Assembly (NCBI GenBank): GCA_963799775.1
Contig: CAWCYD010000003.1
Coordinates: 1,056,001 to 1,120,000, forward strand
Direction of reading: 5' to 3'
Source: an uncultured archaeon
Lineage (GTDB): Archaea; Thermoproteota; Nitrososphaeria; Nitrososphaerales; Gagatemarchaeaceae
DNA length: 64,000 nt
The stretch's first letter is position 1; each line of letters opens with the position of its first letter. Below are positions 13,898 through 60,978 of this stretch, in pieces. The position numbers and the translations under genes are program-made. Below the pieces are notes generated by a model. The model made no database searches, was not told the origin of the DNA, and saw nothing but the letters and a program-made list of their open reading frames with translations.

Positions 13898-14611
13898 ATG
13901 AACAAGGCGGTCACAATCACGGGCGCCCTTGTGTGTGCGTCCGGTGTGACGATGTTCTTCTTGGTCGGCCTTCTGCGTTCGGAGACGTATCGGGCCGCGA
14001 TAATGATCTACGAGTACTCCGCCCTCGTGGTGGGAGTGATAGGCGCAGGCGCGTTTGTCTTCGGCCTGGTGGCACGGGACTCGCCTCTCGGCATGATCGA
14101 CACGGAAGGGGTCGCGCGGTTCTACTTCCGCCTGGCGCTCATCAACACGATCTCGGCGGCTCTCTTCGCTGCGCCGGTGCTCGACCCCAGGTTCGAGTTC
14201 CCCATCCTGATAACCCGTTGGCCCGGCGTGTACATGGTAATCGCCTACACTTTCTTCGTGGTAGTCGGCATCATAGGGGCCCTATGCTGGGGCATCTTCT
14301 TCCATCTCCTCCCAAGCATGTTCGATAGGGCCTCCGTGAGGCGGTTCTGGCTCCTCACGCAGGTGGGGGTCACGGAAGTAGGGATCTATCTCTTGGCGAT
14401 CTTCATGTTCTTGGGCGGGTACATAGGGGCGTCCTTGAATTACGTGGGAGACGGGGACTTCATCGTGGGGGCGGCGATGGAGGTTGCGGTCATCCCTGCG
14501 GCACTGGGCATATTCCTGGTCGTCCTCGGGGCACCTCATCGGTGTGGTCAACGTCCTGCTCGCAAGGACCGGGAACTGACGGGATTCTCTCGCCACCTTG
14601 CGGTCGGCTAG
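13898..14611 (+). CDS. Unassigned multi-pass membrane protein, WPG family paralogue 1 (frameshift at about 14530; true stop probably 14579)
   Basis: PVLDP..WPG..VGIIGALCWGIFFHLLP..FDR shared with 31288..31812 and 35027..35586. Confidence 0.75.
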   Translation: MNKAVTITGALVCASGVTMFFLVGLLRSETYRAAIMIYEYSALVVGVIGAGAFVFGLVARDSPLGMIDTEGVARFYFRLALINTISAALFAAPVLDPRFEFPILITRWPGVYMVIAYTFFVVVGIIGALCWGIFFHLLPSMFDRASVRRFWLLTQVGVTEVGIYLLAIFMFLGGYIGASLNYVGDGDFIVGAAMEVAVIPAALGIFLVVLGAPHRCGQRPARKDRELTGFSRHLAVG

Positions 14612-14648
14612 CCCTTAATAATCACCTAGGCGAGTTATCCAGGCGGCA

Positions 14649-15038
14649 ATGGCTTCAAGGACCGTCAAGATCGAGGTTGCCGGCTTGGCCTTGGTGTTGG
14701 CCTTGGGGATCGGGTATTTCGTCTACTCAAACGCGTCTTCCAACACGAAGGAGATTGACGTCACTCTGGGGGAAGGGAACAGCTACTTCACGCCGACGAA
14801 CGCGACCGCCAAGCTGGGAGACCACGTGACCTTCGTCGTGTTCAACGACGACAGCAATCCTCATGCCTTCGCGATCCAAGCATTCAACGCGACGACCGGC
14901 GTAATCCAGCCGAGCTATTCAGCCAGGATGAGCTTCGTCGCTAACGCGACAGGCAGCTTTCCTTTCTACTCCCCGTTGTCAGCAGACGACGCTTCAGGCA
15001 TGGACAACATCAACGGGACGTTCACGGTGACACAATGA
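14649..15038 (+). CDS. Membrane-anchored cupredoxin-fold protein with a degenerate type-1 Cu site
   Basis: FTPTNATAKLGDHVTF..N.D..PHAFAI..GSFPFYSP..GM. The Cys and second His ligands are absent. Confidence 0.7.
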   Translation: MASRTVKIEVAGLALVLALGIGYFVYSNASSNTKEIDVTLGEGNSYFTPTNATAKLGDHVTFVVFNDDSNPHAFAIQAFNATTGVIQPSYSARMSFVANATGSFPFYSPLSADDASGMDNINGTFTVTQ

Positions 15039-15943
15039 CAGAGCCGAGCAGGACGGGGAAGAGAGTAGAGTCGTACTGGTACCTCGCCCTCGTCCCGATC
15101 TTCGCGATCCTCGCCGTGGTCGAGTTCTATCCAGTTCTCTACTCCTTGTACCTTAGCGTGACGGGTCCGAGCGGCAACTTCACCTTAGGCTACTACTGGC
15201 AGATGTTGACGGACACGGACTTTTGGAGCGCACTGGCTTCATCCCTCACCTACTCGACCATGAGCACGCTCGTCGCGGTAGCGATAGGGCTCTTCCTCAC
15301 CTACCTGGTCACACAGGATTTCCGCGGCAGGAGCATCTACGAAGGCATCTTCATACTCCCGTTGGCCGCGGCCCCGATTGCCGTGGGGATATTCTGGGGC
15401 CCATCAGCTTTCTGGGACGACCTGCAGTCTCTGCTGCACTATCCCATCTCCAGCCTAATCCACTATCAGATACCATATTTCACGGAGACCGGCGTGCTGT
15501 TCTACTTCCCCGTGATGGCCCTATCGGATGCCTGGGAGTGGGCGCCGCTAATCATGCTGGTGGCCTTGAGCATCATCAACTCTAACCCGAAGGAGATCTT
15601 CGAGGCAGCGAAACTGCACGGCGCCTCAAGCTGGCAGGTATTCACGAGGATCGTCGTTCCCACTGTGATGAGGTCTCCAGTCATGCAGTTCGTGATAGTC
15701 CTGAGGTTCATGGACGCCATGCGAGCCTTCGAGATACCTTTGGCCTGGTCAACCTGGGTCGCTCTGTCCACCTCGGTCGGCTCGCCCGTCGATACCCTGA
15801 GCCTCTACCTCTACAAGCTACTCTTCATACCCACGTTCGGCTTCCCGATCGCTCTAGTCTCGACCATCGCCGTCGCCCTATTGGTCGTGACCTTGACAGC
15901 GGTCACCCTGCTGATGCGTCTGCTGGGGACGATTGGAAGGTAG
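15035..15943 (+). CDS. Carbohydrate ABC transporter permease (MalF-type)
   Basis: YPVLYSLYLS, WEWAPL, EAA loop EIFEAAKLHGASSWQVF. Confidence 0.9.
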   Translation: MTEPSRTGKRVESYWYLALVPIFAILAVVEFYPVLYSLYLSVTGPSGNFTLGYYWQMLTDTDFWSALASSLTYSTMSTLVAVAIGLFLTYLVTQDFRGRSIYEGIFILPLAAAPIAVGIFWGPSAFWDDLQSLLHYPISSLIHYQIPYFTETGVLFYFPVMALSDAWEWAPLIMLVALSIINSNPKEIFEAAKLHGASSWQVFTRIVVPTVMRSPVMQFVIVLRFMDAMRAFEIPLAWSTWVALSTSVGSPVDTLSLYLYKLLFIPTFGFPIALVSTIAVALLVVTLTAVTLLMRLLGTIGR

Positions 15944-15949
15944 ACGAGA

Positions 15950-16867
15950 TTGACCCGACCAGACAACATCCAGACCGGGGCGAAGGCTGCAGTCGCTCCC
16001 CGCCGCCGTTCGAGGAAGGTCGCGAGGAGGCTGCTCTTCTATCTGGCCTTGCTACTGTTCTCCTTGTATAGCCTGTACCCGTTCATCGCCGTTGGGATGG
16101 ACGGCTTCGACGCGAACATAGCGGCGCTGTTCGTGGGCAACAACATCATCGAGATAGCTGGGTCTCCCTTCCACCAGGGGATCTTCACATTCAATCTGAC
16201 GCACTATCTGGACGCCCTCAGCCTGGGGTCATTCCCGGCAAGGGTGGTCAACAGTCTCCTCATAGGTGGCATCAGTGTCGCCGTCGCGCTCGGAGCCGGC
16301 ATCCCAGTCTCGTACGTCCTCGCGAGAATCGACATCAAGGGAAGGAACGCTATCTCTTACCTGCTTCTCGCCCTAAGGACCGTCTCTCCCTTTGCGGTTG
16401 TCCTCCCACTCTACATCCTGTTCACGAGGATAGGTCTGTGGGACACGTTCCAGGGCGTCGCTCTTGCCGAGCTCCTCCTCATACTCACCGTGGTCGTGTG
16501 GATGGTGAAAGGGTTCTTCGAGGATATCCCCAGGCAGATCTACGACGCCGCCTCTGTGTTCGGCGCTTCAGAGGCGCAGATCCTTCTCCGGGTCGCCATC
16601 CCGATAATATTCACCGGGATCGTGATTACCGCGATATTTGGATTCATCTTGGTCTGGAACGAGTATCTTATAGCGGTGATAATCTCCGGCCCCGTCACAA
16701 AGCCTGTCTCGGTTGGCGTCTTCAACGGTCTCGGGCCCCTCAACCGTTCGCCGGACTTCGTTGACATAGAGGCGGGGGCGACTTTGGCGTTCATCCCCGC
16801 GGCAATCGTGATGCTGGCGATAAGGAAGTACCTGGCGAAGGGATTCAGTCTGGCAACCGCCCGCTGA
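15950..16867 (+). CDS. Carbohydrate ABC transporter permease (MalG-type)
   Basis: GFFEDIPRQIYDAASVFGAS, FILVWNEY, KYLAKGF. Confidence 0.9.
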   Translation: MTRPDNIQTGAKAAVAPRRRSRKVARRLLFYLALLLFSLYSLYPFIAVGMDGFDANIAALFVGNNIIEIAGSPFHQGIFTFNLTHYLDALSLGSFPARVVNSLLIGGISVAVALGAGIPVSYVLARIDIKGRNAISYLLLALRTVSPFAVVLPLYILFTRIGLWDTFQGVALAELLLILTVVVWMVKGFFEDIPRQIYDAASVFGASEAQILLRVAIPIIFTGIVITAIFGFILVWNEYLIAVIISGPVTKPVSVGVFNGLGPLNRSPDFVDIEAGATLAFIPAAIVMLAIRKYLAKGFSLATAR

Positions 16868-16978
16868 TCCGAGCCCTCACCCAGACAAGTTGGGGCGGAG
16901 TCCTCGACCTAACGCGGTAAGGACTAGCCTATCGCCGATTCAGGGCCAGAACGGAGTGCAAGTCCTGGCGAAGCCCCG

Positions 16979-17815
16979 TTAGACCAAGTCGACGAACTTG
17001 AAGAGGATTATCATGAGCCCCATGGAGAGGATGCCCCAGAGCAACAGCCCTAGGCTCATGATGTAGACCCCGTTGGCAGCCCCAAAGGAGTTCTCGATGA
17101 TCTCACCGGTCCCAATTAGCTCGGCCCCGTATGCGTTCAGGTGGATCTCGGAGATTAGGCCGGCGCTCTCTATCGGGTTCAGAAGGGCCGCAACGAGCGC
17201 CACCTTCGTCCCGTTTGCGATGGTGAGGATGACTCCGAACGAACCTCCAAAGTCCGAGACGAGGACCAGAAGGAACCAGAGGAAGATGGCGACGCTCAGG
17301 GCCGTGACCTTCCTCCTGCTCATCGTCGAGATTATTATCGCGACCGAGAGCATGATGATGTTTAACCCCAGCGACAGCAAGACTATGAAAGCCAGCCCGT
17401 TCAGGACGCTAGCTCTCACGTTCGCCGCGACGAGGACCGATATCAGGTATCCTGCCGCCAGGACCATGGATGTGGATATCGTCAGGCCGATGAATCTTCC
17501 AGCGAGGAACTGCATCCTCGAGAGGGGATTCGAGAGCAGGTACTGCAGGGTGCCTGACTCCTTCTCCTCCACTATTGTGAGCGCCCCCAGCGGGAGAGAC
17601 AACAAAGGCAGGTATGGGAAGGAGGTGGTCCCGAGATAGACCAGGTAGCTGTTGAGCGTGCTCGGAGGCAGGAGTCTTTCGAAGATGAGTATCAGGAAGG
17701 GGACGTTGATCGTCACGAGGAAATAGACAATCGTGAACATGATCAGCCACTTCGCTCGGATGGACTCCCAGAACGTCTGGGAGACTATCGCGCCGACGAT
17801 CCTTGGGCTGTTCAT
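16979..17815 (-). CDS. ABC-2-type (NosY-like) permease, copy 1
   Basis: IVEEKESGTLQYLLSNPLSR..LAGRFIG, LLNPIES. Confidence 0.85.
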   Translation of the reverse strand: MNSPRIVGAIVSQTFWESIRAKWLIMFTIVYFLVTINVPFLILIFERLLPPSTLNSYLVYLGTTSFPYLPLLSLPLGALTIVEEKESGTLQYLLSNPLSRMQFLAGRFIGLTISTSMVLAAGYLISVLVAANVRASVLNGLAFIVLLSLGLNIIMLSVAIIISTMSRRKVTALSVAIFLWFLLVLVSDFGGSFGVILTIANGTKVALVAALLNPIESAGLISEIHLNAYGAELIGTGEIIENSFGAANGVYIMSLGLLLWGILSMGLMIILFKFVDLV

Positions 17816-18717
17816 GCTGCCGGCTTCTCCTCCAGGAACTTTGTGTAAGCAGCCTCTATCTTCGACGGCTCGATCGCGATGTCGTCCAAGATTCCGCCGT
17901 TCGAGAAGAGGTTGTTGAGCAGAGCGAACTTCCTGCTGTTCGGGATCGAGATGACCATAGTGAGGCTCTTGTCGTTGATTATCTTCGCGTTGTTCTTCGC
18001 TAGGATCTCGGTGACCTCCTTCTCGTGGCCCGCCTTGGGTCTCACGTACAGGATCTGGTCCGCGTCCAGCTGTGCAAGGAGAACGTCCGGGTTGCCTTCC
18101 GCTATCTTCCTTCCTCTGTTCAGCACGATTACCTGGTCAGCGAACTCGCTCAGACCGGTGAGGTGCGTCGCGATCAGGAGCGTGTGGCCCCCGAGAGCGA
18201 GGTTCCTGACCAGCCCAAGGAAGTCGAGCTGTCCTTTGAGGTCGATGTTTGCCAGCGGCTCGTCGAAGATGAGCATCGGCGGGTTCGTCAAAAGCGCCAT
18301 GCCCAAGGCGAAGCGCTGCCTCATACCGCCCGAGAGGGCCTTCATCGTCTTCTTTGTAGCATCTGTCAGCCCGACGATCGCAAGCTTCTCTTGGATCGCG
18401 TCCTTGGATGCCCCCTTGATCTTGGCGATGAAGCGGGCCTCTTGGTCGAGCGTCAGATTTTCGTAGAACGCGCTATATTGAGGGACGTAGCCGATACGGC
18501 CTCGGGCTTGCACTCCCTTCTTCTGGACGTCGATTCCGTCCACGAGGATCGTGCCTGAAAAGCGATGCACGCCCATCGTGGCTTTGATCATTGTGCTCTT
18601 CCCGGCGCCGTTGGGGCCTAGCAATAACGCTCGGCCGTTTTTCGGGACTGTGAACGATACATCCTTGAGCGCTTGGAACTTTCCGAATCTCTTACTTACA
18701 TTCTTGACTTCTAGCAA
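17812..18717 (-). CDS. ABC ATP-binding protein (NosF-like), copy 1
   Basis: GPNGAGKST, LSGGMRQR, IFDEP, ATH. Confidence 0.9.
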   Translation of the reverse strand: MLEVKNVSKRFGKFQALKDVSFTVPKNGRALLLGPNGAGKSTMIKATMGVHRFSGTILVDGIDVQKKGVQARGRIGYVPQYSAFYENLTLDQEARFIAKIKGASKDAIQEKLAIVGLTDATKKTMKALSGGMRQRFALGMALLTNPPMLIFDEPLANIDLKGQLDFLGLVRNLALGGHTLLIATHLTGLSEFADQVIVLNRGRKIAEGNPDVLLAQLDADQILYVRPKAGHEKEVTEILAKNNAKIINDKSLTMVISIPNSRKFALLNNLFSNGGILDDIAIEPSKIEAAYTKFLEEKPAA

Positions 18718-18837
18718 GAATAGACCAGCAGTTCAAGATGGTGACCATATAACCTTTGTTTCCAGATGGAGATTTTCTCTTTTTCGACAATGCGCGACTT
18801 TCTTCTCGGCGGACTTCGCGCCGACTCACGCCGGCTT

Positions 18838-19560: not shown

Positions 19561-19580
19561 TCTAGAGCAACTCGGGCCGG

Positions 19581-21147
19581 CTAGAGGCTCGCTGCCTCTG
19601 TGAAGGTGAGGTTGGGAAAGTCCTGGTTGATCTGGTTCTGGGCGTTGGTCAGGGCCTCCTGGGGCGTCTCCGAGCCGGTCCAAGCGTTGTTCAGATGCAC
19701 CGAGAGAGGGACCAAGACATTCAGCCATTGAGGAAAGGGCGTAAGCGCGGTGGTGCCGGTAGACCACGCCTGCTTCGCGACATTGAACGCGGATAGAGCG
19801 CCCGTGCTGATCTCGTTCTGAACCTCCTGCACACTGAGGACCGAGGTCAGTGGTGGGGAAGATGTGGTATTGACCGAGGAGCATCTGCTCCTGCACGCCC
19901 ATGCACGTCGCCCATTGGATCCAGAGATACGCGGCTTCTGGACGATTGGAGAACGCCGAGACCCCGAGCCCAGCCCCTCCGTAGGTCGAGAACGACCCGT
20001 TGGGGCCTGCTGGGTTGAGAGTTGGCACGAACTGCCCTGCCGCGAGCGGCGAGCGCTGGGGGTCGTTGAGCCAGTTGTAGTAGTCGTGCCAGAGGACCGC
20101 CGTCGCCGATGTGCCTTGGGCAAGGGATGTGAACTGGTCGGTCCATGTGAAGCTGTGCGAGCCCGGGTCCGCGTATTGCGCGAACCTCACGTAGTTTTCG
20201 AGGGCCGCAAGGCACTCGCTGCTCTCAAAGTTGGGGGAGATGTTGTTCCCATCGATTGTCCACAAGCTTCCCCCGAAGCTGGCAAGGTGGTTGAGGAACT
20301 CGTAGACTATCGAGACGTCCGCGTTCGCCATGCTGACCGAGGCGAAGGCAGTCCCGTTCCCTCCCAGCTTCTGGCACTGCTGGTAATACTCGTCCCAAGT
20401 CGTTGGCGCGGAGAATCCGAGCTTGTCGTAGATGTCCTTCCTGTAGAACAGGACCATCACGGGCGCATCGAGTGGGAACAGATTGAAGTTGGTGCGTGAG
20501 GCAATCGTGGTGCTGGTCGCGGTTCCTGTCGCCGCGATGGGCGGTGGATATGAGGCCACGTAGTCCCACACCGTGTTCGAGAAGTCGCTTGTATTGTATT
20601 TCGGGTAGGTCAGCTCGGGATACGTCTGGGCCAATTTCACCGGAGAGATGATCCCGTTCTCGAATGAGGCGATGTTCTGGTTGTCGATGCTGAAGACGTC
20701 GTAGGAGGGGCTCTTGGTGCTCACGGCAAGGGTGACCTCCTCCAGTTGGACCAGGTAGGGGACGGGGTTGTAGCCTGCAGAGATGCCGCTGTATTGGAAG
20801 AAGGTCGGGTCGAGAGCCTCGAGAGCATATGGGGCGAACTCTGCCTCCAAGGAAGTAACAACAGTCTTGGAAGGCACCTTGTCTACGACGCTCTGCATCC
20901 ACTCCAAGAAGTCAAGGTAGTCCGGCAGGAGGTTCGAGGCGGAAGAAATCGTCGTTGTTGTGGAAAGAATCTTGTTGATGCCCGCATTTGGGTTGACCTG
21001 TAGCCCGTATATGCCAAGGTCTGCCGCGCCCGCTGCAATCAGCGCGCCGCCTGCCGCGCCGAGCGCCAATCGCAGGAAGTTCCTGCGCGAAGTCCTCCTG
21101 ACTGCCGGTTTCTTAGGAGGGGTCTGGGCCTCGGTTGGACTAGACAT
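19581..21147 (-). CDS. Tat-exported sugar-type extracellular solute-binding protein, frameshift at about 19850
   Basis: SRRNFL Tat motif, LFYRKDIY..APTTWDEY, GGAGLGVS..PEAAYLWIQW. The C-terminus is in ORF 19581..20123. Confidence 0.85.
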
Positions 21148-21907: not shown

Positions 21908-23068
21908 ATGGTCGAGATCAGGGTCGAGGGCGTCCGGAAGAGCTACGGAAAGACGGAGGTTCTTGACGGCATCACGTTCACTGTCGGCGACGGCGAGTTC
22001 GCCGTGCTCCTCGGTCCATCCGGATGCGGGAAGACAACACTGCTTCGGTGCGTCGCTGGGCTGGAGAAGGTGGACAAGGGCGAGATCTACATCGGCGGCG
22101 AGCTTGCGAACGACCTTCTGCCCAGGGAGAGGGACCTTGCGATGGTCTTCCAGAGTTTTTCTCTCTTCCCGACCATGAACGTGCGCGAGAACATCGCCTT
22201 CCCCCTCAAGGTCAGGGGCGTGTCACAGCAGGCAGCCGATGAGAAGGTCAGAGAGGTCGCGAAGATCCTAGGAATCGAGCCCCTGCTTGACAAGCCCCCC
22301 AGACAGATCAGCGGCGGAGAACAGCAAAGGGTCGCCATCGGCAGGGCCATCGCGCGCGAGCCGAAGGCCTTTCTCATGGACGAGCCTCTCAGCAGCTTGG
22401 ACGCCCCTCTGAGGGCCCAGCTCAGGTCAGAGCTGAAGCGCATCCAGAGAGAGATCGGCGTGACGACGCTCTACGTGACCCACGACCAGGCAGAGGCCCT
22501 GGCCCTGGCGGACAAGATAGGCGTGCTCAATAAGGGGTCGCTCCTCCAGTACGGGCCCCCTCTGAGCGTCTTCGGGAGCCCGTCGTCGGCCTTCGTCGCG
22601 AGGTTCGTGGGCGACCCGCAGGCGAACATCCTCAATGTCTCGCTCGTGTCTGGAAGCTCCCCCGGAGAGTATGTCCTTCAGGCCGAGGGGTTCCGCCTCC
22701 CTGTGTCTGCTGGGATGGGGAGCACCATCAGTCAAAGCGCAAAGTCGCCGGGGAAGTCTAGCGAAGAACAGGCGCACATGCAGGTCGCGATCAGGCCAGA
22801 GGACATCCAGCTCGTCCCGACCCGCGACTCGGACGAGCTAGTCGAGGCTAAGGTGCTCCTCGACGAGCCCCTTACGCTCTACAGGATCGTCACTGTCAAA
22901 GTAGGAGACGGGGAGGTGAGCCTCGGCGAACATGAAGGTCCTTGTGGGGAAAGACGTGAAAGTGACCCAGGGGCAGCAAGTCTGGCTCAGGTTCAACCCA
23001 AGCAAATTCCACCTCTTCGACCGCGCGACGGGAAACCTAAGAGCCTAGTCGTGGTTCGACGGGTCTGA
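21908..23068 (+). CDS. Carbohydrate ABC transporter ATP-binding protein (MalK-type; frameshift near 22920 in the TOBE region)
   Basis: GPSGCGKTT, ISGGEQQRVAIGRA, MDEPLSSLDAPLR, YVTHDQAEA. Confidence 0.92.
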   Translation: MVEIRVEGVRKSYGKTEVLDGITFTVGDGEFAVLLGPSGCGKTTLLRCVAGLEKVDKGEIYIGGELANDLLPRERDLAMVFQSFSLFPTMNVRENIAFPLKVRGVSQQAADEKVREVAKILGIEPLLDKPPRQISGGEQQRVAIGRAIAREPKAFLMDEPLSSLDAPLRAQLRSELKRIQREIGVTTLYVTHDQAEALALADKIGVLNKGSLLQYGPPLSVFGSPSSAFVARFVGDPQANILNVSLVSGSSPGEYVLQAEGFRLPVSAGMGSTISQSAKSPGKSSEEQAHMQVAIRPEDIQLVPTRDSDELVEAKVLLDEPLTLYRIVTVKVGDGEVSLGEHEGPCGERRESDPGAASLAQVQPKQIPPLRPRDGKPKSLVVVRRV

Positions 23069-23098: not shown

Positions 23099-25750
23099 TC
23101 AGGTAGGCGCCACGCCAGGCCCGACTCGCTTGCGAGTGAGCACCATCGCTCCCGCGATCACTGCGAGTATGACGACCGCGCCCACGAGGGCATAGAAGGC
23201 GTCGCTGTAGACGCCTATTCCAGACACGGTGGTCGTCTGGGGCCCCGTGCTGCTGCTGCTAGACCCTGATCCCAGTGAGAGCGAAATCACATCTCCCGGC
23301 ACGATGTACCCATGGCCGAGCGGCCCGTGGAGGCCTACCTCGCCTAGCACGGCGTGCTGAGTGCCTCCGAAGGTCAGGAGCAGGTGCATGTTCCCTGCGC
23401 CGTCGGGTGCGATGCTCATGGGTGCGAGCAGAGGCAGCCCGAAGTTGATGTCGCGTATCACTTGGCCGTTGCTGGCGTCCAAGAAGATCAGCTGGCCGTC
23501 AGGCCATTGGGTGATGAGCATCCCGCCGGTGGCTAGGACACCGCCTCTGTAGTAGATCCCTCTCGTGTAGTTCCAGACTACCTGACCGGTGGCCGGGTTG
23601 AGGGCGAGCACGGTCGCGTTCGTCGGCATTGTCCCTGCGAAGTAGAGGTCCGTATCGAACGTCAGGCCGGAGGTGCCCTTGTAGTTGACGTCGCTGATGA
23701 AGTCGTGCTCCATGGGGCCGTCCTGAACGACGACGTAGAAGTACTTGCCATCGTAGGCGTTCTCAGACTCCATCAGATACCTCGCCTCGGTGAATCCCTT
23801 CTTCGAGGCTTCCAGTGATGGGCAGGAAGGCACCGAGGAAGAGATGCTCGTCGAGAACTCCGGGCATCCCAGATTCGTCCCCACTCCCGCCAAGGCTTGG
23901 CACTGGGCAGTCGTACCTATCGGACACGTGAACTGCATCATCTCAGTGTTGTTTAGTGGGTTGAAGTCGACGCTGCCCCTGTATGGGCTGGGGGACACAT
24001 AGCCGTGTGGATGCGGGTTGGTCCCCTGCATCTTCAGAGTCCCGGTGTCATACGCATGGTAGATCTTGTCCCAAGCCGCTCCATAGTTGCAGCTCGTGAC
24101 ATTGGTCGCGCTGCATTCGAAGGGCTGAGATAAAGCGGAAGTCCCTGACGAGGAGCCTACGGTGCTCTGGTTCGGCATCGTAGTGTCGAGGATCCAGACG
24201 GGTGCGCCGGTTATCTCGTTTATCCCGTACACGACGCCGCCCTTGCAAGCCTTCAACACCATCGGGTTGTTGTTGACGTTAGCCATCGTCACGTTGAGGT
24301 TGCAGTCTTGGTCGTTGATGTCCTTCGCGACGGTCTTGTCGACCCAGATGATGCTGCCGTTCGTCAAGCTCAATGACACGATCGAGTCGGCCAACAGGTT
24401 CGGGCCTGTGCGGAAGGTAGAGTTCCAGTCGGGAGCTGCCTGTGAGGTTCCCATGATGAAAGTGCCGTGGGCGTCATCTAGCGCGAAATTACCCCAGCTG
24501 TTGCTCATTCCGCTGCTAGGGCCTATGGTCGTGTTCCATGCAGCCTGGTTGGCCGGGAACTGCCAGTCGTTCTGAATTAGGCTCTGCGTTAGGTCCGAGC
24601 AAGGTACCCCAGCAATCCAGACGTGAGGATTCTTGCAGATATTTACTGAAAAGTTGGGCGTGCTGCCGTCGAGTGCGGGGAACTCGAATGTTCTCCATAG
24701 AAGGCTGCTGCCCGAGGAACAAACTCCTCCGGCCGACGTTGTGCACGGACCCCCGTTGACGCCGTCTAGGCTAGTCGACATGTTTGCGGTGCAGTTGTCC
24801 CCTGGATTGGTGTACTTGCCGGTGGTTGCGTTCAGGTTCAAGGCGTCCGATAGACTGCATCCTTCGACGAACGCTCTGCCTTGACCCGTGCCCTCCGCCG
24901 ATCCACCGCCATACTCTAGAATGACGTTGTGCGCGGCGTCCACTTGGATCTCTGCGTCGCCGTACGGGTAGTACTGCCCGGTACCTGTCGTCGGCCTGAC
25001 GTTTCCAGGGATGTTGTCACAGAGCCCTGTTAGGTTCGCCCTGAGCTGGTAAGTGTTCGCGTCCCAGCCCTGAAGCTGGCAACCGAATCCTGGGACCCAG
25101 ATGATCCCGTCGACTAGATTGACACCATGAAGATGTCCTGGACCGTATCCTGGCGCTATCGGTTCCTTGGCGAAATACGCCCAGTCCATGCTTGGGAAGT
25201 CAGAGCCGAGGAGCTTGCCAGTCGCGAGATCGATGGCATAAACAGAGAGACCATTTGTGACCACGTATCCCACTCCACCAGAGGTTACAACAGGTGCCTG
25301 GGTTCCTTCCAGGCCTGTGCTGTAGACGAGCCCTGGGAAACGGCACTGCGATGTCCCGTTGACGTAGTTGCAGGGACCCCATGCGGGCGTGCTGCTCCAG
25401 ATGCTAGGTATCGGGAAGATGTATGAAGTCTGAAGGTTCCCTACGTTACTCGATGTGATCTGCGTCTGTGGCGAGTAGTTCCAGCCATTAGTCCCATAGG
25501 TGCCGGGACCCGTGTCCTCTGTCCAATCTAGGCTGCCCCCCGAGGAGCTAGAAGAGCTGGAGTTGGTCGTGGTTGTCGCGAGAGGCGAAGTCCCAAGGGG
25601 GACGGAAGCCTGCGCCAACGCGTTAGTGCTGCCTTGGGTGGATCCGGCTGCGCTCTGAACGAGCGGGACGCCGACCACGGAAGCCATCAGAAGCAATCCA
25701 GTGATTGCGAAGCAAGAAAACGCAGAGATTCGAGTAGACTGTGAACCCAT
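23099..25750 (-). CDS. Membrane-anchored PQQ-type beta-propeller protein 1 (883 aa)
   Basis: Signal peptide, YSPQTQITSSNVGNLQ, GTSQAAPDWNSTFRTGPNLLADSIVSL, ACKGG, YRGGVLATGG, C-terminal TM plus RKR. Confidence 0.85.
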   Translation of the reverse strand: MGSQSTRISAFSCFAITGLLLMASVVGVPLVQSAAGSTQGSTNALAQASVPLGTSPLATTTTNSSSSSSSGGSLDWTEDTGPGTYGTNGWNYSPQTQITSSNVGNLQTSYIFPIPSIWSSTPAWGPCNYVNGTSQCRFPGLVYSTGLEGTQAPVVTSGGVGYVVTNGLSVYAIDLATGKLLGSDFPSMDWAYFAKEPIAPGYGPGHLHGVNLVDGIIWVPGFGCQLQGWDANTYQLRANLTGLCDNIPGNVRPTTGTGQYYPYGDAEIQVDAAHNVILEYGGGSAEGTGQGRAFVEGCSLSDALNLNATTGKYTNPGDNCTANMSTSLDGVNGGPCTTSAGGVCSSGSSLLWRTFEFPALDGSTPNFSVNICKNPHVWIAGVPCSDLTQSLIQNDWQFPANQAAWNTTIGPSSGMSNSWGNFALDDAHGTFIMGTSQAAPDWNSTFRTGPNLLADSIVSLSLTNGSIIWVDKTVAKDINDQDCNLNVTMANVNNNPMVLKACKGGVVYGINEITGAPVWILDTTMPNQSTVGSSSGTSALSQPFECSATNVTSCNYGAAWDKIYHAYDTGTLKMQGTNPHPHGYVSPSPYRGSVDFNPLNNTEMMQFTCPIGTTAQCQALAGVGTNLGCPEFSTSISSSVPSCPSLEASKKGFTEARYLMESENAYDGKYFYVVVQDGPMEHDFISDVNYKGTSGLTFDTDLYFAGTMPTNATVLALNPATGQVVWNYTRGIYYRGGVLATGGMLITQWPDGQLIFLDASNGQVIRDINFGLPLLAPMSIAPDGAGNMHLLLTFGGTQHAVLGEVGLHGPLGHGYIVPGDVISLSLGSGSSSSSTGPQTTTVSGIGVYSDAFYALVGAVVILAVIAGAMVLTRKRVGPGVAPT

Positions 25751-36136: not shown

Positions 36137-36140
36137 TTTC

Positions 36141-38346: not shown

Positions 38347-38427
38347 GGACGGTTCACCAGGATCGCCTCAGAAAGGCTCGTTCTCCGATCGTCGATCGAC
38401 CGCTGACCTACCTCCAGTCGCGGACGG

Positions 38428-42018: not shown

Positions 42019-42053
42019 GGAGAATAGCTTGCTACTGAACGGAGGAGTGGCTT

Positions 42054-45888: not shown

Positions 45889-46636
45889 TCACACCAAGTT
45901 CACTATGAAGCCGAGGAGGAATCCAAGGAAGACACCGAGATAGCCCAGCCGTTGCGAGCCGAGGGAAGGGCACCTGAAGATGGCCTTGAGCATCGGAAGG
46001 ACCGCGTACAGAATGGCTCCGAGGGCTAGGCCGTAGAAGACGAGGTTGAAGCTTGCAGAGCTGTAGTAGAACCCAATAGCGCCGCCAAACACCGCCGGCA
46101 GGCCTCCGATGAGGAACAGCACCGTGATCAAGCCTACTTTGCCCTGGGGCTTCCCCAGGAAGGGCAGGGCGATCGGGAACCCTTCGGTGATGTTCTGCAA
46201 GATGAATCCCACAAGGATGACGAGCGCCGCCCTCGAGAGACCGAACGCGATCGTAAGCGATCCGAAAACGAGCCCCTCTGTCAGGTTCTGGAATGCCATG
46301 CCGACGGCTATGATTGACGCGAGCTGGCTGGGAGACAGTCCCTTCTTCGACCTGCTCTCAGCGAAGAAGAGGACGAGGAACCCGAACGACAAGGAGATTC
46401 CAAATATCGCGTCGTTCGTGGCGGAGGGCCCGTACTCCGTAGAGGGACCCGTTATACAGAGACGCCGCTGCGTCGGTGAAGATGTCGCCCACCAGGAATA
46501 CAAGGATTCCTGCGGCTATCGCAGTAAGGAGCGTTATCCTCAGAGCACCGGTGTCCTTATGGAGGACTATGGGGAGGGAGATGAAGATCGAGAGGCCCAT
46601 TATCGCGGAGAGCGCGATGGTCTCTGCGAAGTCCAT
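45889..46636 (-). CDS. ZIP-family divalent metal transporter (frameshift at about 46435)
   Basis: AIAAGILVFL, GMAFQNLTEGL, LQNITEGF, ALGAILY. Confidence 0.75.
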
Positions 46637-51247: not shown

Positions 51248-53183
51248 ATGGGTTTTCAGCGGATTCTCACCAGACCAGTAATCATTGCGGTCATCGTCCT
51301 CCTCTCCTTCGGTGGGTTCGCGAACGTCATCGTGCATGCAGCAACTACCATCTCGCCCTATCCCAACTGGCCGGCCTCGTCGTACAACTTCCAGAACACC
51401 AATAACGATCCGCAGGATGTGATCAACGTCAACAACGTCCAATACCTGGAGCCCAGCTGGATCTACGAGGGTCCCGGTCAACCCATTCAGCATCCCCGGC
51501 GCCCCTCCCGCGCTAGGGGTGGAGGCGCAAGAACTCGTTGTGAACGGGTTTGACTATGTGGCGACTCCTTACAACTCGATAATAGCGCTCAACACGGAGA
51601 CCGGAAACGTCGCTTGGACTTACCCAATCAACATGACTCAGTTTGTCGGCGAAAAATGGTGGTCTGGCGCGTACGTGATAAGCGGGATATCTGACTACAA
51701 CCAGACCATCTACGTCACCGCCTCGAACACAGCCATCTATGCGCTCAACGCACTCAACGGCAGCCTAGACTGGATGATTCCGCCAATCGCGGCGAACATC
51801 CCTGGCAACACCGGGACTTATTATGGTGAAAAGGCCCCGATACTGGTCGGCGACAACCTGATCGTGAGGGCGTCCACTACGGACTACGGAGGAAGGGGCT
51901 TCGTCGCAGCCTACAACATAGACACGAAGAAGCTGGTCTGGCAGTGGTACTCGGTGCCGTCCGCGACCACCCCTGACCCCAACTGGGACTCTCAGGACGT
52001 GGTGACGCTCGCGAACGGGACGACCGTGAACTACGGCCAGGCTCAAGGGAACATCACGCCGTATACGGGGGACTGGGGGACAACCAACCAGTCGGTCTCT
52101 CTCATTGGGGGAGGAGCGGCATGGGGTCTAATCGCCGTCAACAACCAGACAGGCGTAATCTACTTCTCGACAGGCCACCCATCCGATGGGTACGATGCCT
52201 CCCTGCGACCAGGCCCGAACCTGTTCACGGACTGCATCGTGGCGCTCAATTCGACCACCGGAAAGATGATCTGGTACTACCAGATGACCTCGCACGACAT
52301 CACCGAGCACGAAGGCGGGTGGAGCGACAGCCTCTCGACCATCACGCTCTCCAACGGGCACCTCGGTCCAGGTCGTGATCCAGGGGGCCAAGAACAACGA
52401 GGTCTATGTGCTCAACGCCGCGACGGGCAAGCCTGTGTACACCCCGATCATGGTCGGCCCGAAGTCTTCAAACAACTGGAACGACGGCCTAACCGCGACT
52501 GCCAACCTCACGGCGTCTCAAGCCCTGTTTGGGAGTAAGGACATCTGCCCGGGGCCTGACGGTGGGATCGAGATGGCGCCCGCTGTCGACGGCAACATGC
52601 TCTATTTGGTCACCCAGAATGCTTGTGGGGTGATGAGCTACGCGGCCGGTGCTTATCCGTATAAGGGCCAGAACATCAACGGATACATCTACACCGACGA
52701 CCCCGCGGCGCAGGAGAATGGGACCGTCTACGCGATCAACCTCGCCAACGGGCAGCCGGTCTGGGATTACAACCTTCCCAACAGGTACCAAGGTTCGTCT
52801 GCTGTAATCAGCGGCGGGGTGCTCTACATCATCGACAGGGCAGGAATTCTCTACATGTTTGATGCCGCGAACGGGAACCTGCTGAAGAACTTCCAACTCA
52901 ACGGCATCGGGGCTGCTGGAGTCTCAATCGCGACCAACACTGAAGGGACCATGACGCTCTTCGCTCCGGCAGGTGGAGGGCCTTGGGCGGTGCCACTCCG
53001 GGCGTCGTGGTCGCTTACAATATAGTCAACGCCCCCCCGCCCGGCGGCGGGGCCGTCTACGAGCCCATCATAATAGCGCTAGGAGTGCTCGTGGTAGTCC
53101 TCACCATGTACGTGCTGCTAAGCAGGAGGAGAAGGGAAGCTACGCCATCTCGCGCGAAGCCTCCGCGGACTCGCGCCCTCTAA
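51248..53183 (+). CDS. Membrane-anchored PQQ-type beta-propeller protein 5 (frameshifts at about 51500, 52360 and 52980)
   Basis: ORFs 51248..51553, 51519..52538, 52375..53025 and 52983..53183. DYGGRGFVAAY, GGAAWG, RPGPNLFTDCIVAL, CPGPDGG. Confidence 0.85.
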
Positions 53184-56691: not shown

Positions 56692-56702
56692 CAGAGGTGC
56701 GC

Positions 56703-57509
56703 CTATCCGGAGAGCGAGTCCGAGAGAGGCCTGTCCTGGATGACGTAGGCGACATAGATGGCGTCGTGCAGGCTCCAGTAGATGTCTGCCATCGACTCCG
56801 CGGCCTCGATCGCCTTCTGCTGCATCTCTCTAGTCCTACAATACCTGAGCACTATTCGGAGAGTGGTCTCGTTCGCTTCGTCGAGCTGGCCCAGCCTCGA
56901 CATGAAGAACCTGTAGCCCTCAGGCTCGATCCAAGGATAGTGCCTCTTGAAGGCCTCGATCCTCTTGACGAGCTCGCCCTTCGCGAAGTACTCGATGAGT
57001 GATGCTGCGACCCCCTCGGTCCAGTCCGCCCTCCTCGCAAAATTGACGTAGCCGTTGACCGCGAACCTCACCCCGGGCAGGCACCTCGCCCTGAGGATGT
57101 CGTCCCTCGCGACCCCTGCGGACTCGGCGAAGCCTATCCAGCCCTCCACGTCTCCTATGCTCCCGCCCAGTCCCTCCCTCTTCAGTATCCTCCCGATCCA
57201 GAGCCTGCGCACCTCGGTCTCCGGGCAGTTGGAGAGGATGGCGGCGTCCTTCAACGGGATGTTCTTCTGGAGGTAGAACCTGTTGATTATCCAGGCCCTG
57301 AGCTGCTTCGGGGTCAGCTTCCCAGAGTAGAGCATCACCATCAGGGGGTGCTTGTCTTGCATCTTGTCCTTGAGCTTGGTCTCGAGGAGTCTCAAGAACT
57401 CCTTCCTCTCGAGGGCAGCCCCTGCACCTGACTGCGGCGAGAGGGTTCCCCTCGGTGGGACGGGTCTGCGACGGCCGGCGACGCTCCGCTGCTTCGAAGA
57501 CTTCCTCAT
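56703..57509 (-). CDS. pqqC: PqqC (pyrroloquinoline-quinone synthase)-family protein with substituted catalytic residues
   Basis: NRFYLQKNIPLKDAAILSNCP, LPGVRFAVNGYVNFARR, HYPWIEPEGY, DIYWSLHDAI. Confidence 0.85.
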   Translation of the reverse strand: MRKSSKQRSVAGRRRPVPPRGTLSPQSGAGAALERKEFLRLLETKLKDKMQDKHPLMVMLYSGKLTPKQLRAWIINRFYLQKNIPLKDAAILSNCPETEVRRLWIGRILKREGLGGSIGDVEGWIGFAESAGVARDDILRARCLPGVRFAVNGYVNFARRADWTEGVAASLIEYFAKGELVKRIEAFKRHYPWIEPEGYRFFMSRLGQLDEANETTLRIVLRYCRTREMQQKAIEAAESMADIYWSLHDAIYVAYVIQDRPLSDSLSG

Positions 57510-58282
57510 TCCTTGAACCCCCTTGTCTTGACCTCATAGATGCACGCCGAGGAGCCGCCTCCCTCCTTCTGGTCGAGCCTCTGTATGCTAGTCCTTCCGC
57601 TGTGCTTGCCTTTGATTGCGCCCGTGAGCATCCCCCTCGTGAAGGAGCAGACGAGGCTGCCGTACTCCTTGTTCTCGAAACAGCCCGAGCAGTGGATCAT
57701 AGAGTCCCCGCGCTTCCTCGTCTCAAGAGTGAGATGGGCCATGTTCTGGTCTTCGAGGTAGCCTACCAAAGCCTTCAACCCGCTCTTCATCGTCGAGAAC
57801 TTCACGAAAGGGGCGATGAGCTCATGGCCGACGCGCTCGCCAAAGCCCTCGAAGACCGCGTCGTTCATCGAACCAGAGTCTGCGGTGAGCCTGAAGAGAT
57901 GGTAGAGGAATATCTCGATCTCATCCGCTGGCTTTCTTGTCGGCTCTAGGTGCCAGCTCACCAGTAGCTTCTCGAAGAGTTCGTCCAGCCTTCCCAGCGC
58001 GCCTTCTTGCTCGTCTCGTCGTCTCGCGAGGACGAGGCCGCCATGCTTGAGGGCGTATGTCTTGCTGTAGACGCCTCCCCTTATGCTCTTGATGTCTGCG
58101 ATCTCAATCATGTCCCTCCTCAGGAGAGTCTTGGTGTGGTAGGAGACGGTCGCCTTCGAGACTCGTAGCTCCTTCGCAATCTCAGTCGCCGTCGAAGGGC
58201 CCTTTGAGAGGACGGTCAGGATCGCGTCCCTTACCCAGCCCTTTAAGGGGCTGGAGCCGCGGATTTCTAGCAGCTGGCTCAT
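57506..58282 (-). CDS. ArsR-type wHTH transcriptional regulator with C-terminal V4R-like domain
   Basis: TATEIAKELRVSKATVSYH; CSGCFE..CSFTRGMLTG..ACIYEV. ATGA overlap with pqqC. Confidence 0.8.
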   Translation of the reverse strand: MSQLLEIRGSSPLKGWVRDAILTVLSKGPSTATEIAKELRVSKATVSYHTKTLLRRDMIEIADIKSIRGGVYSKTYALKHGGLVLARRRDEQEGALGRLDELFEKLLVSWHLEPTRKPADEIEIFLYHLFRLTADSGSMNDAVFEGFGERVGHELIAPFVKFSTMKSGLKALVGYLEDQNMAHLTLETRKRGDSMIHCSGCFENKEYGSLVCSFTRGMLTGAIKGKHSGRTSIQRLDQKEGGGSSACIYEVKTRGFKE

Positions 58283-58346
58283 TCCAGTTCGGTTAATTCT
58301 AACTGATTCCTCTATAAAGGCTCGCAATTACCTATGACCAATCGCA

Positions 58347-58886
58347 ATGCCTGGAGAACGCGCGAAAGGGAAGAATCACGTCGACGAGACGCTAAGGATA
58401 GGCGAGGCAGGACCCAAGGGGAAGGGCGTCTTCGCTACGCGGAGGATAGAGCCCTTGGACCTTGTCTGGGACTACGCGGGGGAGGAGAGATGGATCAAGG
58501 ACATCCCGAAGAAGCTCTGGCGATACTGCTTCCAGGTCGACTACGACAGATACGTGATGCCGGAGAAGGGCTCGCCAGGCTGGTTCATGAACCATTCATG
58601 CAAGCCCAACTGCGTGATCATTGGCAGGACGAGGATAGTCGCTCTCGGGCGCATAGAGAAGGGGGACGAGGTGACCTTCGACTACTCGACCAACGTCGGC
58701 TGGGACGGGTTCTCGATGAGATGCCATTGCGGCACGAAGGAATGCCGAGGCACGGTCAAGAGCTACAAGTTCCTCCCAGACGAGCTCAAGATGAGGTATG
58801 GCGCGTGCGTCTCCTCGTTCCTCTTGCGCGTTACGTGGCATCGCGGAACCGGTGTAGCCGTTCCTCCCGACGGCGCAGCCAAATGA
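58347..58886 (+). CDS. SET-domain lysine methyltransferase with post-SET Zn motif
   Basis: KGKGVFA, FMNHSCKPNC, GDEVTFDY, CHCGTKECRG. Confidence 0.9.
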   Translation: MPGERAKGKNHVDETLRIGEAGPKGKGVFATRRIEPLDLVWDYAGEERWIKDIPKKLWRYCFQVDYDRYVMPEKGSPGWFMNHSCKPNCVIIGRTRIVALGRIEKGDEVTFDYSTNVGWDGFSMRCHCGTKECRGTVKSYKFLPDELKMRYGACVSSFLLRVTWHRGTGVAVPPDGAAK

Positions 58887-59574
58887 GGATCGGCATTGTC
58901 GCCATGAAGGCCACTACAGCAATCACAGCCGAGGCACCGCCGTAGAAGTAGACCCAGTTCTTGAAAGGGCTCTCTGAGTAGCGCTGCGAAAGCGGAGGGC
59001 CCGATGTTTGCCACTGTGGGAAGGTCGTCGCGCCCCCGCTGTACTGGGTGGAGAATGACTTGAAGTTCCATGACTCTTCGGATATCAACCATTTTCCGTC
59101 GGAGTGGACGTAGCGGTACTGGGCGTTTACGTTCCCATTGAAGTACCCCAGGTCGGCGTTCTCTCCGCTCAGGAAAATGCTGCCGTTCACCATGGCGACG
59201 TTGGGGCTGCCTGAAGGGAGGCTCGAAAGGCCGCCGCTCGATATCATCATCCTGGTCGTAGACGAGAGGAAAGCGACCAGCAGATTCCGCACGCTGTCAA
59301 TCCCGTTGTAAGACCCCGCGAAAGAAAGCGTGTTGCCAGACCACACGACCGAGGCGTTCTGGGAGTAGTCCGAAATCGCCTCGCCAGGGTTGAGGTTTTC
59401 TAGGTTTTGGAAATGACTCTGGACGATCGACTGGTCGAACGAGCCTGAGGCTGCAGTAGTGGTCGCCGCTGGCTGGCTGATACTTGGAGGCACCAGCTTG
59501 AACAGGGCGAAACCAAAGATGACCAGGACCATCAGACCCACGAGGAGCCAGAAATGAGGACGAGAGGTGTCCAA
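58831..59574 (-). CDS. Surface protein with NTF2/SnoaL-like domain and C-terminal TM, paralogue 2
   Basis: AAGGAG before TTG 59574; GKWLISEESWNF; TTFPQW..YSESPFKNWVYFYGG. Confidence 0.7.
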   Translation of the reverse strand: MDTSRPHFWLLVGLMVLVIFGFALFKLVPPSISQPAATTTAASGSFDQSIVQSHFQNLENLNPGEAISDYSQNASVVWSGNTLSFAGSYNGIDSVRNLLVAFLSSTTRMMISSGGLSSLPSGSPNVAMVNGSIFLSGENADLGYFNGNVNAQYRYVHSDGKWLISEESWNFKSFSTQYSGGATTFPQWQTSGPPLSQRYSESPFKNWVYFYGGASAVIAVVAFMATMPILIWLRRREERLHRFRDAT

Positions 59575-59622
59575 CTCCTTGAAGACGTGGTGTCTGGAGG
59601 CGGCGGTCTTCAATAAGCGTCG

Positions 59623-60978
59623 CTACCTCCACTTCTTCCTGATCGCGAAGGCCATGAACGCTAGGCCAGCCAAGAGAAGGCAGAGGGAGATGAACCCGGA
59701 ACGCGCTCACGAACCCGAGGAACCCCACCATGAACCCGATGGAAATTGCGGCGATGCCGTACCCAGTGTGCTCCATCGCGTGATTGGTTCCCATTATGGC
59801 GGCGCGACTGGATTGGTTGGTCGCTTCGGCAAGGATCATGAGCTGGCTTATTCTGATCATCGCGATAAAGAACCCGTGGGCGAACGATGCTATGATGAAG
59901 ACAGGGAGGGTGGAATAGATGAAGACGGCCCCGATTGACAACGAACTGCCTACCAAACCGGCGACGAGGTACGGCATTCGCCTCGTGCCCCTGTCGAGCC
60001 GATGCCCAAGGGGTATCATCACGCTGACCGTGGTGAGCGCCATTATGGTCGCAAAGTATCCGTAAAGAGCGCCATAGAGCGGCACGGTAGCAGTCAGGGA
60101 ATGCGCGTAGAGCGGCACGAACTGGAAGAAACCTGAGAACCCGATTCCCCCGTCTATCGTCGTGAGCAACGCGACGCTGACGATCGGAGTCTTGAAGGCC
60201 TTGATGTAGTCACTCCAAGAGGCGCTGTGGGCATGCTCCTCCATGCTTATCGGAGCGTCGAGGCCGAGCGGATGTGGTTCCACGTTCACCTCTTCGCTGC
60301 CGTGCATCGGCTTCATCCTGTAGGACGCTCCCTTCACCTCAGGCATGAGAAAGAAAGCGATCACAGCAGACAAGGCCATGAGGTAGAGCGCGTCTTGGAA
60401 GACGGCGATGCTGCTCCCCGTGTTATCGCGCCAATCGCCGTTCCCAGGCCCGGGCCGAACGCAAAGCCGGCGAACTCCACACCATCGACCAAGCCGTATG
60501 CCTTGCCCATCTCCCTGTATTGTTCCGCGAGATCTGCAGAATACGAGAGGGTGCTCGCAGTGTATGTCCCGTGAGCTATGCCGAGCAGGCACAGAGAGAG
60601 AGTCATGGCCGCCAAGAATTCGGGGAGCGCGGTGAACGAGTTCGAGACGATGAGCGAGCCGAGGGCGACCGCCCCCATAGAGGAGCCGATGATCGTCAGC
60701 TTCTGGCGGCCGTACTTGTCGCAGAGATGACCCATCGGGACTGATATCAAACCCGAGGTGACGAGATAGATCCCGGAGATGCCACCCACGAAGGCGTACC
60801 CCACGGTCCCCAGCTGGAAGGTAATCGTCAGCTTGTCTGAGAGGAAGACGAGAACGATGATGAAGGACGAATATTCGGCGACATGGGTAAGAAAGCCTAC
60901 AGCCCCGACTCCCGCGAAGAGCCTGACGAAGTGCGAGACTCCGCTTCGAGGGCGCTTTTGTCTCAGTCTTGTTACCAT
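59623..60978 (-). CDS. MFS transporter (paralogue of 4329..5616), frameshifts at about 60420 and 59700
   Basis: GHLCDKYGRQK, HGTYTASTL, GKAYGLVDGVEFAGFAFGP, MGTNHAMEH. Confidence 0.85.

Follow-up and report, generated by a model that had tools for sequence, protein, structure and literature searches.

What unit is encoded between positions 13898 and 60978 of a 64,000-nucleotide stretch of contig CAWCYD010000003.1, from an uncultured, soil-type archaeon of the Gagatemarchaeaceae? This whole stretch, hereafter the window, carries several propeller proteins of the kind that uses pyrroloquinoline quinone (PQQ), and a preliminary description had taken the 47 kb as one copper-themed system that oxidises substrates outside the cell without cytochromes and has machinery of its own for loading metal or cofactor. 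Genes were called by third-position G+C and annotated with Pfam and NCBIfam. We find that a smaller core is conserved, consisting of a PQQ propeller, a protein of NTF2-like fold and membrane proteins of a family that we call WPG (clades A and B), often together with a sugar importer of the ATP-binding cassette (ABC) type and a small Cys-rich protein. This core is real, and the region is best read as two or three copies of the module, partly scattered and mixed with unrelated surface-protein genes. Our verdict is a known kind of system, the PQQ dehydrogenases, with two undescribed conserved partner families.

WPG and NTF2-like genes are linked to PQQ propellers across related genomes

Related loci were fetched with a WPG profile from a set holding one genome per species, giving 16 loci in 15 metagenome-assembled genomes (MAGs), and all window proteins were compared with these loci by tblastn and open reading frame (ORF)-level BLASTP, over flanks of up to 10 kb. 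WPG has an NTF2-like gene as its direct neighbour in 13 of the 16 loci; the exceptions are L009 (2.6 kb), L015 (3.2 kb) and L014, whose 6.3 kb of upstream flank is free of it. Twelve loci include a PQQ propeller (absent from L009, L012, L014 and L015), and two WPG genes stand side by side in 12, one from clade A and one from clade B. The sugar-binding protein (SBP) was found in 8/16 loci and the Cys-rich 173-aa protein in 9/16. The NTF2-like and WPG genes stay together across at least five gene orders, out to Candidatus Calditenuis: NTF2, WPG-A, PQQ; PQQ, NTF2, WPG-A, ABC-2; NTF2, WPG-B, WPG-A, PQQ; NTF2, WPG-B, WPG-A, SBP; and PQQ, NTF2, WPG-B divergent from WPG-A. Genes of the module are spaced -14 to 226 bp apart, L003, L004 and L005 having junctions that overlap or measure 4 bp, and the propellers that adjoin the module belong to four subfamilies (FastTree, midpoint root). 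One group of loci has genes for an aldo-keto reductase and a methyltransferase between the importer and the propeller. A hint of linkage that is independent of the WPG-based fetch comes from the homologue tables of WPG2 and NTF2b, which have nine 'longest contig' sizes in common, some of them 1330, 1960 and 3155 bp, and from one WPG/NTF2 homologue pair with consecutive NCBI locus tags (OK455_06485 and OK455_06490).

The MAGs are labelled Thaumarchaeota, Nitrososphaerales or 'archaeon', with one Ca. Calditenuis fumarioli and one contig binned as Alphaproteobacteria, and the hosts are non-ammonia-oxidiser-like Nitrososphaerota, including Ca. Calditenuis. The alphaproteobacterial contig (L011, CAVTGB010000083.1, 'uncultured Alphaproteobacteria bacterium') has WPG-B, WPG-A, NTF2 and major facilitator superfamily (MFS) genes near-identical to those of a Thaumarchaeota MAG (L010), and its taxon label probably results from faulty binning. 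The species-representative scan with the WPG profile returned no locus with a marine heterotrophic label. A mevalonate-3-kinase domain match had raised the idea of a Thermoplasmatota window; we dropped it, since the homologues of the module all come from MAGs with Nitrososphaerota labels.

The remainder of the 47 kb does not travel with this core. The NHL proteins, the multicopper oxidase, the ZIP-like protein and the cupredoxin were found in none of the 16 loci, the DUF929 protein in one (L001, the nearest relative), and PqqC near WPG in one, as a 71-aa fragment match. The ABC-2 permease-ATPase pair, which the preliminary description had counted among its repeated modules, is embedded in the module in just two loci (L002 and L007); the repetition of propeller, WPG and NTF2-like genes did hold. 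The co-occurrence and synteny across archaeal MAGs by which the earlier proposal was to be judged link WPG, NTF2-like and propeller genes but leave the NHL genes unlinked. We conclude that the block of NHL, second ABC-2 pair, oxidase and ZIP-like genes, together with the cupredoxin and the DUF929 protein, are local company and not part of the module.

WPG proteins resemble one arc of oxidase subunit I

The three WPG membrane paralogues, correctly recognised before, are alike by BLASTP (E 8.6e-19 and 6.7e-10), and WPG proteins match no Pfam or NCBIfam family. The AlphaFold2 (AF2) model of WPG2 consists of four long helices (pLDDT, the predicted local distance difference test score, 90.8). A word-indexed search returned 70 homologues of WPG2, none usefully named; among them, one has a precomputed PF00115 domain and one is named oxidase subunit 1 by its source. 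Searching 1.84 billion representatives with the WPG profile gave 122 clusters at E <=1e-3, nearly all of them short (121/122 at most 345 aa); the family is therefore small and stands alone. A tree of 32 WPG proteins separates into two deep clades, A and B, with the side-by-side pairs contributing one member to each, that of Calditenuis included, although long branches leave the deepest joins unsure.

Canonical oxidase subunit I is built of three four-helix arcs and has an H-x-H heme-ligand pair in the region matched by WPG. Five of 15 WPG members match PF00115 (COX1) below threshold, always at about positions 297-405 of the 436 in the profile and at best with E 4.8e-6; the best member scores 26.1 bits against a gathering score of 34.8, short of family membership, and WPG1, WPG2 and WPG3 gave no COX1 profile match even at E 10. 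The WPG profile does find P0188, a 669-aa protein (E 1.2e-9; hhalign probability 91%), which in turn matches PF00115 at E 7.6e-31, with all matched stretches in profile positions 267-431. In P0188 the four-helix arc of the COX1 C-terminal part is repeated in tandem as three units, beginning HTH, HAH and HAQ, and the HTH of its first repeat aligns with W64-F65-V66 of WPG2 (hhalign). The ESM Atlas result for P0188, with a score of 0.76, is a lead at most. In 67 WPG sequences, the two best histidine columns reach 67% and 48%. The top Foldseek matches of the WPG2 model in the PDB are COX1 chains (TMq 0.57-0.67), and the nearest ESM Atlas clusters of WPG1 carry PF00115 (score 0.93); against PDB sequences, the WPG profile gave chance matches to G-protein-coupled receptors alone (E 0.7-2). 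WPG is like heme-copper oxidase subunit I in its C-terminal profile matches, its transitive link through P0188 and its fold matches, and unlike it in having four helices, not twelve, no conserved histidine and no copper-site subunit II partner encoded. We conclude that WPG, a heme-less and histidine-poor protein of four helices, derives from the C-terminal arc of the oxidase subunit and is not a PF00115 member.

NTF2-like proteins are tethered cones with a conserved juxtamembrane stretch

The two anchored NTF2-like proteins reported earlier share 41% identity, match no Pfam or NCBIfam sequence family, and do have the fold assigned to them. The AF2 model of NTF2b (pLDDT 83) has an NTF2-like cone between N- and C-terminal helices, and its Foldseek matches, to scytalone dehydratase-like, LinA and SnoaL-like chains (E 4.3e-8 to 1e-6, TMt 0.6-0.84), are those of an NTF2-like alpha+beta cone. 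For NTF2a, the orthologue in L001 (271 aa) aligns to both of the frames in which the window gene lies. The family has invariant W, Y and E residues, and its most conserved stretch, ATTFPQW...QRYSESPFKNWVYFYGG, is situated directly outside the C-terminal helix. Judging from the AF2 model and the charge distribution, the conserved motifs in the WPG loops would lie on the outer side of the membrane, a face that they would share with the juxtamembrane stretch of the NTF2-like protein.

PQQ propellers and PqqC

All six propellers of the preliminary description match PF01011 above the cut-off, four of them intact and two frame-broken. A profile of 17 propellers aligns over its full length with XoxF (6dam_A, E 6e-61, 597 positions); the best propeller score for TIGR03075 is 148.7, against a cut-off of 480, and TIGR03074 matches are located in the propellers alone (NCBIfam). 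The Glu, D-x-D and Lys motifs are all present in PQQ1, PQQ4 and PQQ6, and PQQ2 keeps the Glu and D-Q-D and has lost the GRGF arginine. We take the Glu to be metal-binding and the Asp(-x-Asp) to be catalytic, or to serve as metal ligand plus base, as in lanthanide-type enzymes. PQQ3, whose best NCBIfam match is TIGR04528 'acido-empty-quinoprotein', far under its cut-off, is probably non-catalytic. The vicinal Cys-Cys of XoxF is absent, the aligned consensus columns of the propellers being non-Cys. Long Cys-rich insertions are found in PQQ1 and PQQ2, and related Cys-pair insertions in the propellers of L006-L013.

The PqqC homologue noted earlier appears to be a true PqqC: its match to the solved PqqC in PDB 1otw_A covers 212 residues at E 1.7e-60, where chains of the related 4-aminobenzoate synthase and CT610 reach about 3e-7, and it scores 224.6 bits with TIGR02111, just under the cut-off of 240. 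Because the two genes overlap by 4 nt, pqqC and the helix-turn-helix regulator upstream are probably co-transcribed. The regulator has a CSGC motif, and the MsvR model that it weakly matches is a redox-sensing one. In line with the preliminary description, the CxxCH motif is absent from every called ORF of the window, and no radical-SAM or PqqB/D/E protein was matched by Pfam among the window genes.

Relation to known systems

Passages of the papers on Gagatemarchaeum (PMC10640624) and on heterotrophic marine Thaumarchaeota (PMC7300363) describe several divergent, signal- or transmembrane (TM)-bearing PQQ propellers in adjacent pairs or trios, without Cys-Cys and some with D-Y-D or D-x-D; the marine enzymes, too, have no Cys-Cys disulfide (PMC7300363). 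In the same passages, pqqC is present, cytochrome c was not found, and the electron acceptor was guessed to be a quinone or a blue copper protein (PMC10640624, PMC7300363), the matter being called unsettled in one of them (PMC7300363). Taken with two further sources (PMC13374868; bioRxiv 2019.12.22.886556), they put the expansion and colocalisation of PQQ dehydrogenases, the lone pqqC and the lack of cytochrome c on record. The earlier remark that such expansions are known is borne out, and the idea of a quinone or blue copper acceptor is in print as well (PMC7300363). The window propellers are like these sets in being multiple, anchored, Cys-Cys-less and accompanied by pqqC. The partner families are another matter. 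WPG or NTF2-like neighbours receive no mention in the passages of PMC10640624 or PMC7300363, and the terms NTF2, SnoaL and PF00115 have 0 occurrences in two supplement files of PMC10640624; its Supplementary Data 18, in which two of the 16 loci are represented by their MAG names (AcS1-13 and AcS1-27), lists propeller locus tags alone. No description of WPG or NTF2-like partners was found in the literature searched.

The closest working analogy is Gluconobacter SldA/SldB, one of the membrane-bound quinoprotein dehydrogenases, to which membrane glucose dehydrogenase also belongs. There, too, an outward PQQ propeller works with a small multi-helix membrane protein encoded next to it, SldB being small and hydrophobic. 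The activity of SldA depends on the product of sldB, the gene upstream, according to a title cited in PMC8102297. The archaeal module differs in having two WPG clades and an NTF2-fold protein, and in propellers that are self-anchored. WPG is, moreover, related to oxidase subunit I and would differ in origin from SldB, and the archaeal hosts probably use menaquinone and not ubiquinone.

Proposed function of the module and its rivals

We propose, tentatively and with a confidence that falls somewhat short of even, that outward-facing quinoprotein dehydrogenases have the WPG A/B pair and the NTF2-like protein as accessory membrane subunits, which couple them to the respiratory chain. The module would comprise at least one membrane-anchored extracellular eight-bladed PQQ propeller of the XoxF or ethanol-dehydrogenase kind, most with Asp-x-Asp, an NTF2-fold protein tethered by its C-terminal helix, and one clade-A plus one clade-B WPG, usually with the sugar ABC importer and the small Cys-rich anchored protein. 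The propeller would bind these partners and oxidise a sugar or an alcohol outside the cell; the accessory subunits would then hand the electrons on to the respiratory chain, or dock the enzyme there, in the role that cytochrome c or an N-terminal membrane domain plays in bacteria, and the importer could take up the substrate or the oxidised product. In a bolder form, which we consider somewhat unlikely, WPG A/B and NTF2 would be a new heme-free module derived from one subunit-I arc, wiring PQQ dehydrogenases into a cytochrome-c-free respiration either as a new type of anchor that reduces quinone or through direct contact of the dehydrogenase with the terminal oxidase; P0188, with three arcs in one 669-aa chain, would then be a relic of arc assembly. 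Two families standing beside these enzymes, one of them oxidase-derived, are concrete and testable candidates for cytochrome-c-free electron transfer.

Several observations weigh against this proposal. The loci were chosen via WPG, which makes the linkage counts one-sided, and many of the MAGs are close kin, so that the loci cannot be counted as 16 independent events. Neither NTF2 nor PQQ is encoded in the 6.3 kb of flank upstream in L014, and in L005 the stop of WPG-A and the start of the SBP gene overlap, which would suit a role with the importer equally well. The propellers carry their own TM anchors by hydropathy, so that an anchor subunit is not needed, and PQQ3, the propeller directly beside WPG2, lacks the catalytic residues. 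With no conserved redox ligand, WPG as such cannot hold heme, and a quinone site in it is pure conjecture; the absence of a redox ligand, the self-anchored propellers and the dead PQQ3 next to WPG2 all count against a simple electron wire. The kinship with COX1 has its own soft points, since the COX1 Foldseek matches all have E >0.08 and the representative search with the WPG profile returned no full-length COX1 at E <=1e-3. No fusion of WPG with a propeller was found among the 122 representatives, nor were longer, fused relatives of NTF2b found, the latter being weak evidence. Finally, the potential of PQQ is about +90 mV according to a preprint. These archaea probably use menaquinone, and direct quinone reduction by PQQ would then be uphill, which keeps docking to a terminal oxidase, or a role in maturation, alive.

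Maturation is indeed one way of reading the same genes: WPG and the NTF2-like protein would be cofactor-delivery factors that export or insert PQQ or metal into apo-propellers, and not lasting members of an electron-transfer complex. A pocket for small molecules is common among NTF2-fold proteins, and PQQ, being made in the cytoplasm, has to get across the membrane. We regard this as unlikely. It draws on the same linkage evidence as the accessory-subunit proposal, and is further favoured by the NTF2-fold matches being small-molecule enzymes and binders, by the invariant W, Y and E, by a PqqC encoded in the same region and by a WPG devoid of redox ligands; yet a four-helix protein without a known transporter fold makes a weak exporter candidate, the single pqqC found near WPG among the 16 loci is a fragment, the module also adjoins a propeller without active-site residues, and no known PQQ-handling family was matched in Pfam or NCBIfam. 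A distinctly unlikely reading would instead tie WPG, the NTF2-like protein and the Cys-rich protein to the sugar importer as envelope or transport accessories, with the propellers, themselves clustered and numerous, as mere neighbours. The frequencies of the SBP and of the Cys-rich protein and the WPG-A/SBP gene overlap of L005 are consistent with it, as are passages reporting that PQQ dehydrogenase genes are numerous and colocalised in these archaea (PMC10640624). However, L003, L004 and L007 have NTF2/WPG by a propeller with no importer gene nearby, the propeller is the commoner neighbour (12/16 against 8/16 for the SBP), and with at most eight propeller genes per ~2 Mb, a random 20-kb stretch should, by our own estimate, seldom hold one.

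That the whole 47 kb encodes a single system for oxidation outside the cell, free of cytochromes and with metal-loading machinery of its own, is highly improbable, and this reading is largely refuted by the synteny counts. The genes do lie together, and nearly all of the non-transporter products are predicted to be surface-anchored, as described before, by TM-like segments at the N- and/or C-terminus (hydropathy). A precedent exists in Pseudomonas putida PedA1A2BC, an ABC transporter with a beta-propeller protein serving lanthanide-dependent PQQ enzymes (PMC6839425), and TIGR03864, the ATPase of a PQQ-dehydrogenase-system ABC transporter, is the second-best NCBIfam match of the ABC-2 ATPases. 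Those matches score only 145 and 122 bits against a cut-off of 302, though, and NCBIfam gave no Ped-type model match for the ABC-2 permeases or the NHL proteins. The region is also divided by an insertion sequence (IS) transposase, its oxidase is split, and its cupredoxin has no cysteine. With most of the 'copper island' outside the conserved unit, the set of genes worth testing becomes narrower.

Genes outside the module

The coordinates of the module and of its neighbours are collected in Table 1.

Table 1 Features of the region, with coordinates in the window
Feature	Coordinates	Strand	Remarks
WPG1	13898..14611	+	237 aa, clade A, two extra N-terminal TM segments
Cupredoxin-fold protein	14649..15038	+	129 aa, PF13473 32.7 bits
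Two permeases, binding-protein-dependent sugar-type ABC importer	15035..16867	+	Pfam; orthologues in L002, L005, L006, L008, L010, L016
ABC-2 permease + ATPase, pair 1	16979..18717	-	occasional module member
Twin-arginine translocation (Tat)-signal SBP of importer	19602..21147	-	frame change near 19840, ORF reads on into next gene
Importer ATPase	21908..23068	+	frame change near 22905
PQQ1	23099..25750	-	883 aa, Glu + D-Q-D, N- and C-terminal TM
PQQ2	26004..29078	-	1024 aa, Cys-rich inserts, NDQDC, N- and C-terminal TM
PQQ3	29182..31074	-	no metal-binding Glu or Asp-x-Asp (WGWG instead); directly adjoins WPG2
WPG2	31288..31812	-	174 aa, 4-TM, clade A; core module
NTF2a	31878..32706	-	ORF 31878-32480 plus N-terminal 33 aa in other frame (32608-32706); ATTFPQW, C-terminal TM; core
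Cys-rich anchored protein	32885..33406	-	173 aa; frequent module neighbour
DUF929 protein	33582..34715	-	CVYC; module-linked in nearest relative alone
WPG3	35125..35586	+	153 aa, clade B, HDGHPM replacing WPGTWM
NHL1, ABC-2 pair 2 (38428-40151), NHL2, NHL3	36598..44052	-	separate cluster, not WPG-linked elsewhere
Tat-signal multicopper oxidase	44042..45869	-	split by frameshift near 44667
5-TM protein	45889..46503	-	ZIP match at chance level
DDE transposase (IS element)	48049..48942	+	PF01609, E 1.4e-28; splits region into two halves
PQQ4	49071..51149	+	692 aa, Glu, GDFDC, CKNG
PQQ5	51248..53025	+	broken, three frames; E-H-E replacing D-x-D
PQQ6	54749..~56700	+	two frames, junction near 55656; Glu, DFDC; open frame continues into antisense of pqqC
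PqqC	56703..57509	-	last step of PQQ synthesis; overlaps upstream regulator stop by 4 nt
ArsR/MarR-type helix-turn-helix regulator	57506..58327	-	weak full-length MsvR-like match, 63 bits vs cut-off 220
NTF2b	58831..59613	-	260 aa, full-length, anchored at both ends

The copper theme of the preliminary description is weak. A cupredoxin fold is indeed matched, but the protein has zero cysteines and thus no Cys-His-His(-Met) site; because there is no cysteine, it can hold neither type-1 nor CuA copper, and we ruled it out as the electron acceptor. It is also the sole match to the NosZ model, at 34 bits against 625. The multicopper oxidase is present as announced and lies across two frames, with domains 1-2 in ORF 44004-45869 and the Cu-oxidase_2 domain in the other frame (44042-44665). 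The protein once called a ZIP matches that family at E 0.25 and 11 bits, against a cut-off of 35.1, and the assignment is unsupported. The three NHL propellers, the DUF929 protein and the sugar ABC genes are present as described.

Both ABC-2 pairs exist as well, with 56-59% mutual identity, and their permeases match PF12679, which we take to be the Pfam family of NosY. We rejected them as NosFY or PedBC, the scores being under the family cut-offs, and no NosD, NosZ, Ped-type binding protein or YVTN propeller was matched in the window by Pfam or NCBIfam. The pairs are like PedA1A2BC and NosDFY in that genes for an ABC-2 permease and ATPase stand next to those of enzymes using PQQ or copper and of a partner built as a beta-propeller or beta-helix; they differ in the low scores, in the missing companions and in being module-linked so rarely, and resemble the Ped lanthanide transporter in general make-up only. 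A dedicated metal or cofactor loading machinery accordingly finds no backing in these genes. In the importer, the 769-aa ORF 18838-21147 (-) consists of the SBP and a separate anchored protein (18838-19437), whose orthologue in L002 lies at 17263-17919. The Cys-rich 173-aa protein matches no Pfam or NCBIfam family.

Composition and reading-frame breaks of the window

G+C is about 59% in the window and stays between 0.56 and 0.63 throughout (composition scan), with no island boundary and no compositional break; tRNA and Rfam scans gave no match. At least 10 genes are interrupted in the 64 kb, about one per 6 kb, with frame changes at 4329-5616, 6581-7808, 8640-9621, 19602-21147, 21908-23068, 31878-32706, 44042-45869, 51248-53025, 54749-56700 and 59297-60978. 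Besides the propellers and the oxidase, these affect NTF2a, the SBP, the sugar ATPase and an MFS gene (59297-60978), and outside 13898..60978 there are splits in TnpB, in another MFS gene and in an MVD-like gene. The junctions are located close to short G or C runs, and the N-terminus of the second ABC-2 ATPase is unaligned. The breaks are either long-read indel errors in the 2.06-Mb contig to which the window belongs or the mark of many pseudogenes.

Of the remaining products, u182 and u191 have no match in Pfam or NCBIfam. Two small anchored Thr/Ser-rich proteins (35777-36166 and 36141-36488, both on the minus strand), without a Pfam or NCBIfam family, have a C-terminal motif D-x-D-G-D-G-V in common. 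A mobile element flanks the region, a split TnpB/IS605-type gene at 6581-7808 (-) with a low third-position G+C of 0.54. Just beyond the region on the other side, at 61255-63998 (-), lies a metal importer of ZnuA, ABC-3 and ATPase genes. Such an operon, accompanied by a NikR-like gene, also stands 3-6 kb from the WPG pair in several loci (L006, L007 and L010), where it adjoins genes for an unnamed protein of 281 aa and for a membrane protein matching PF09819.

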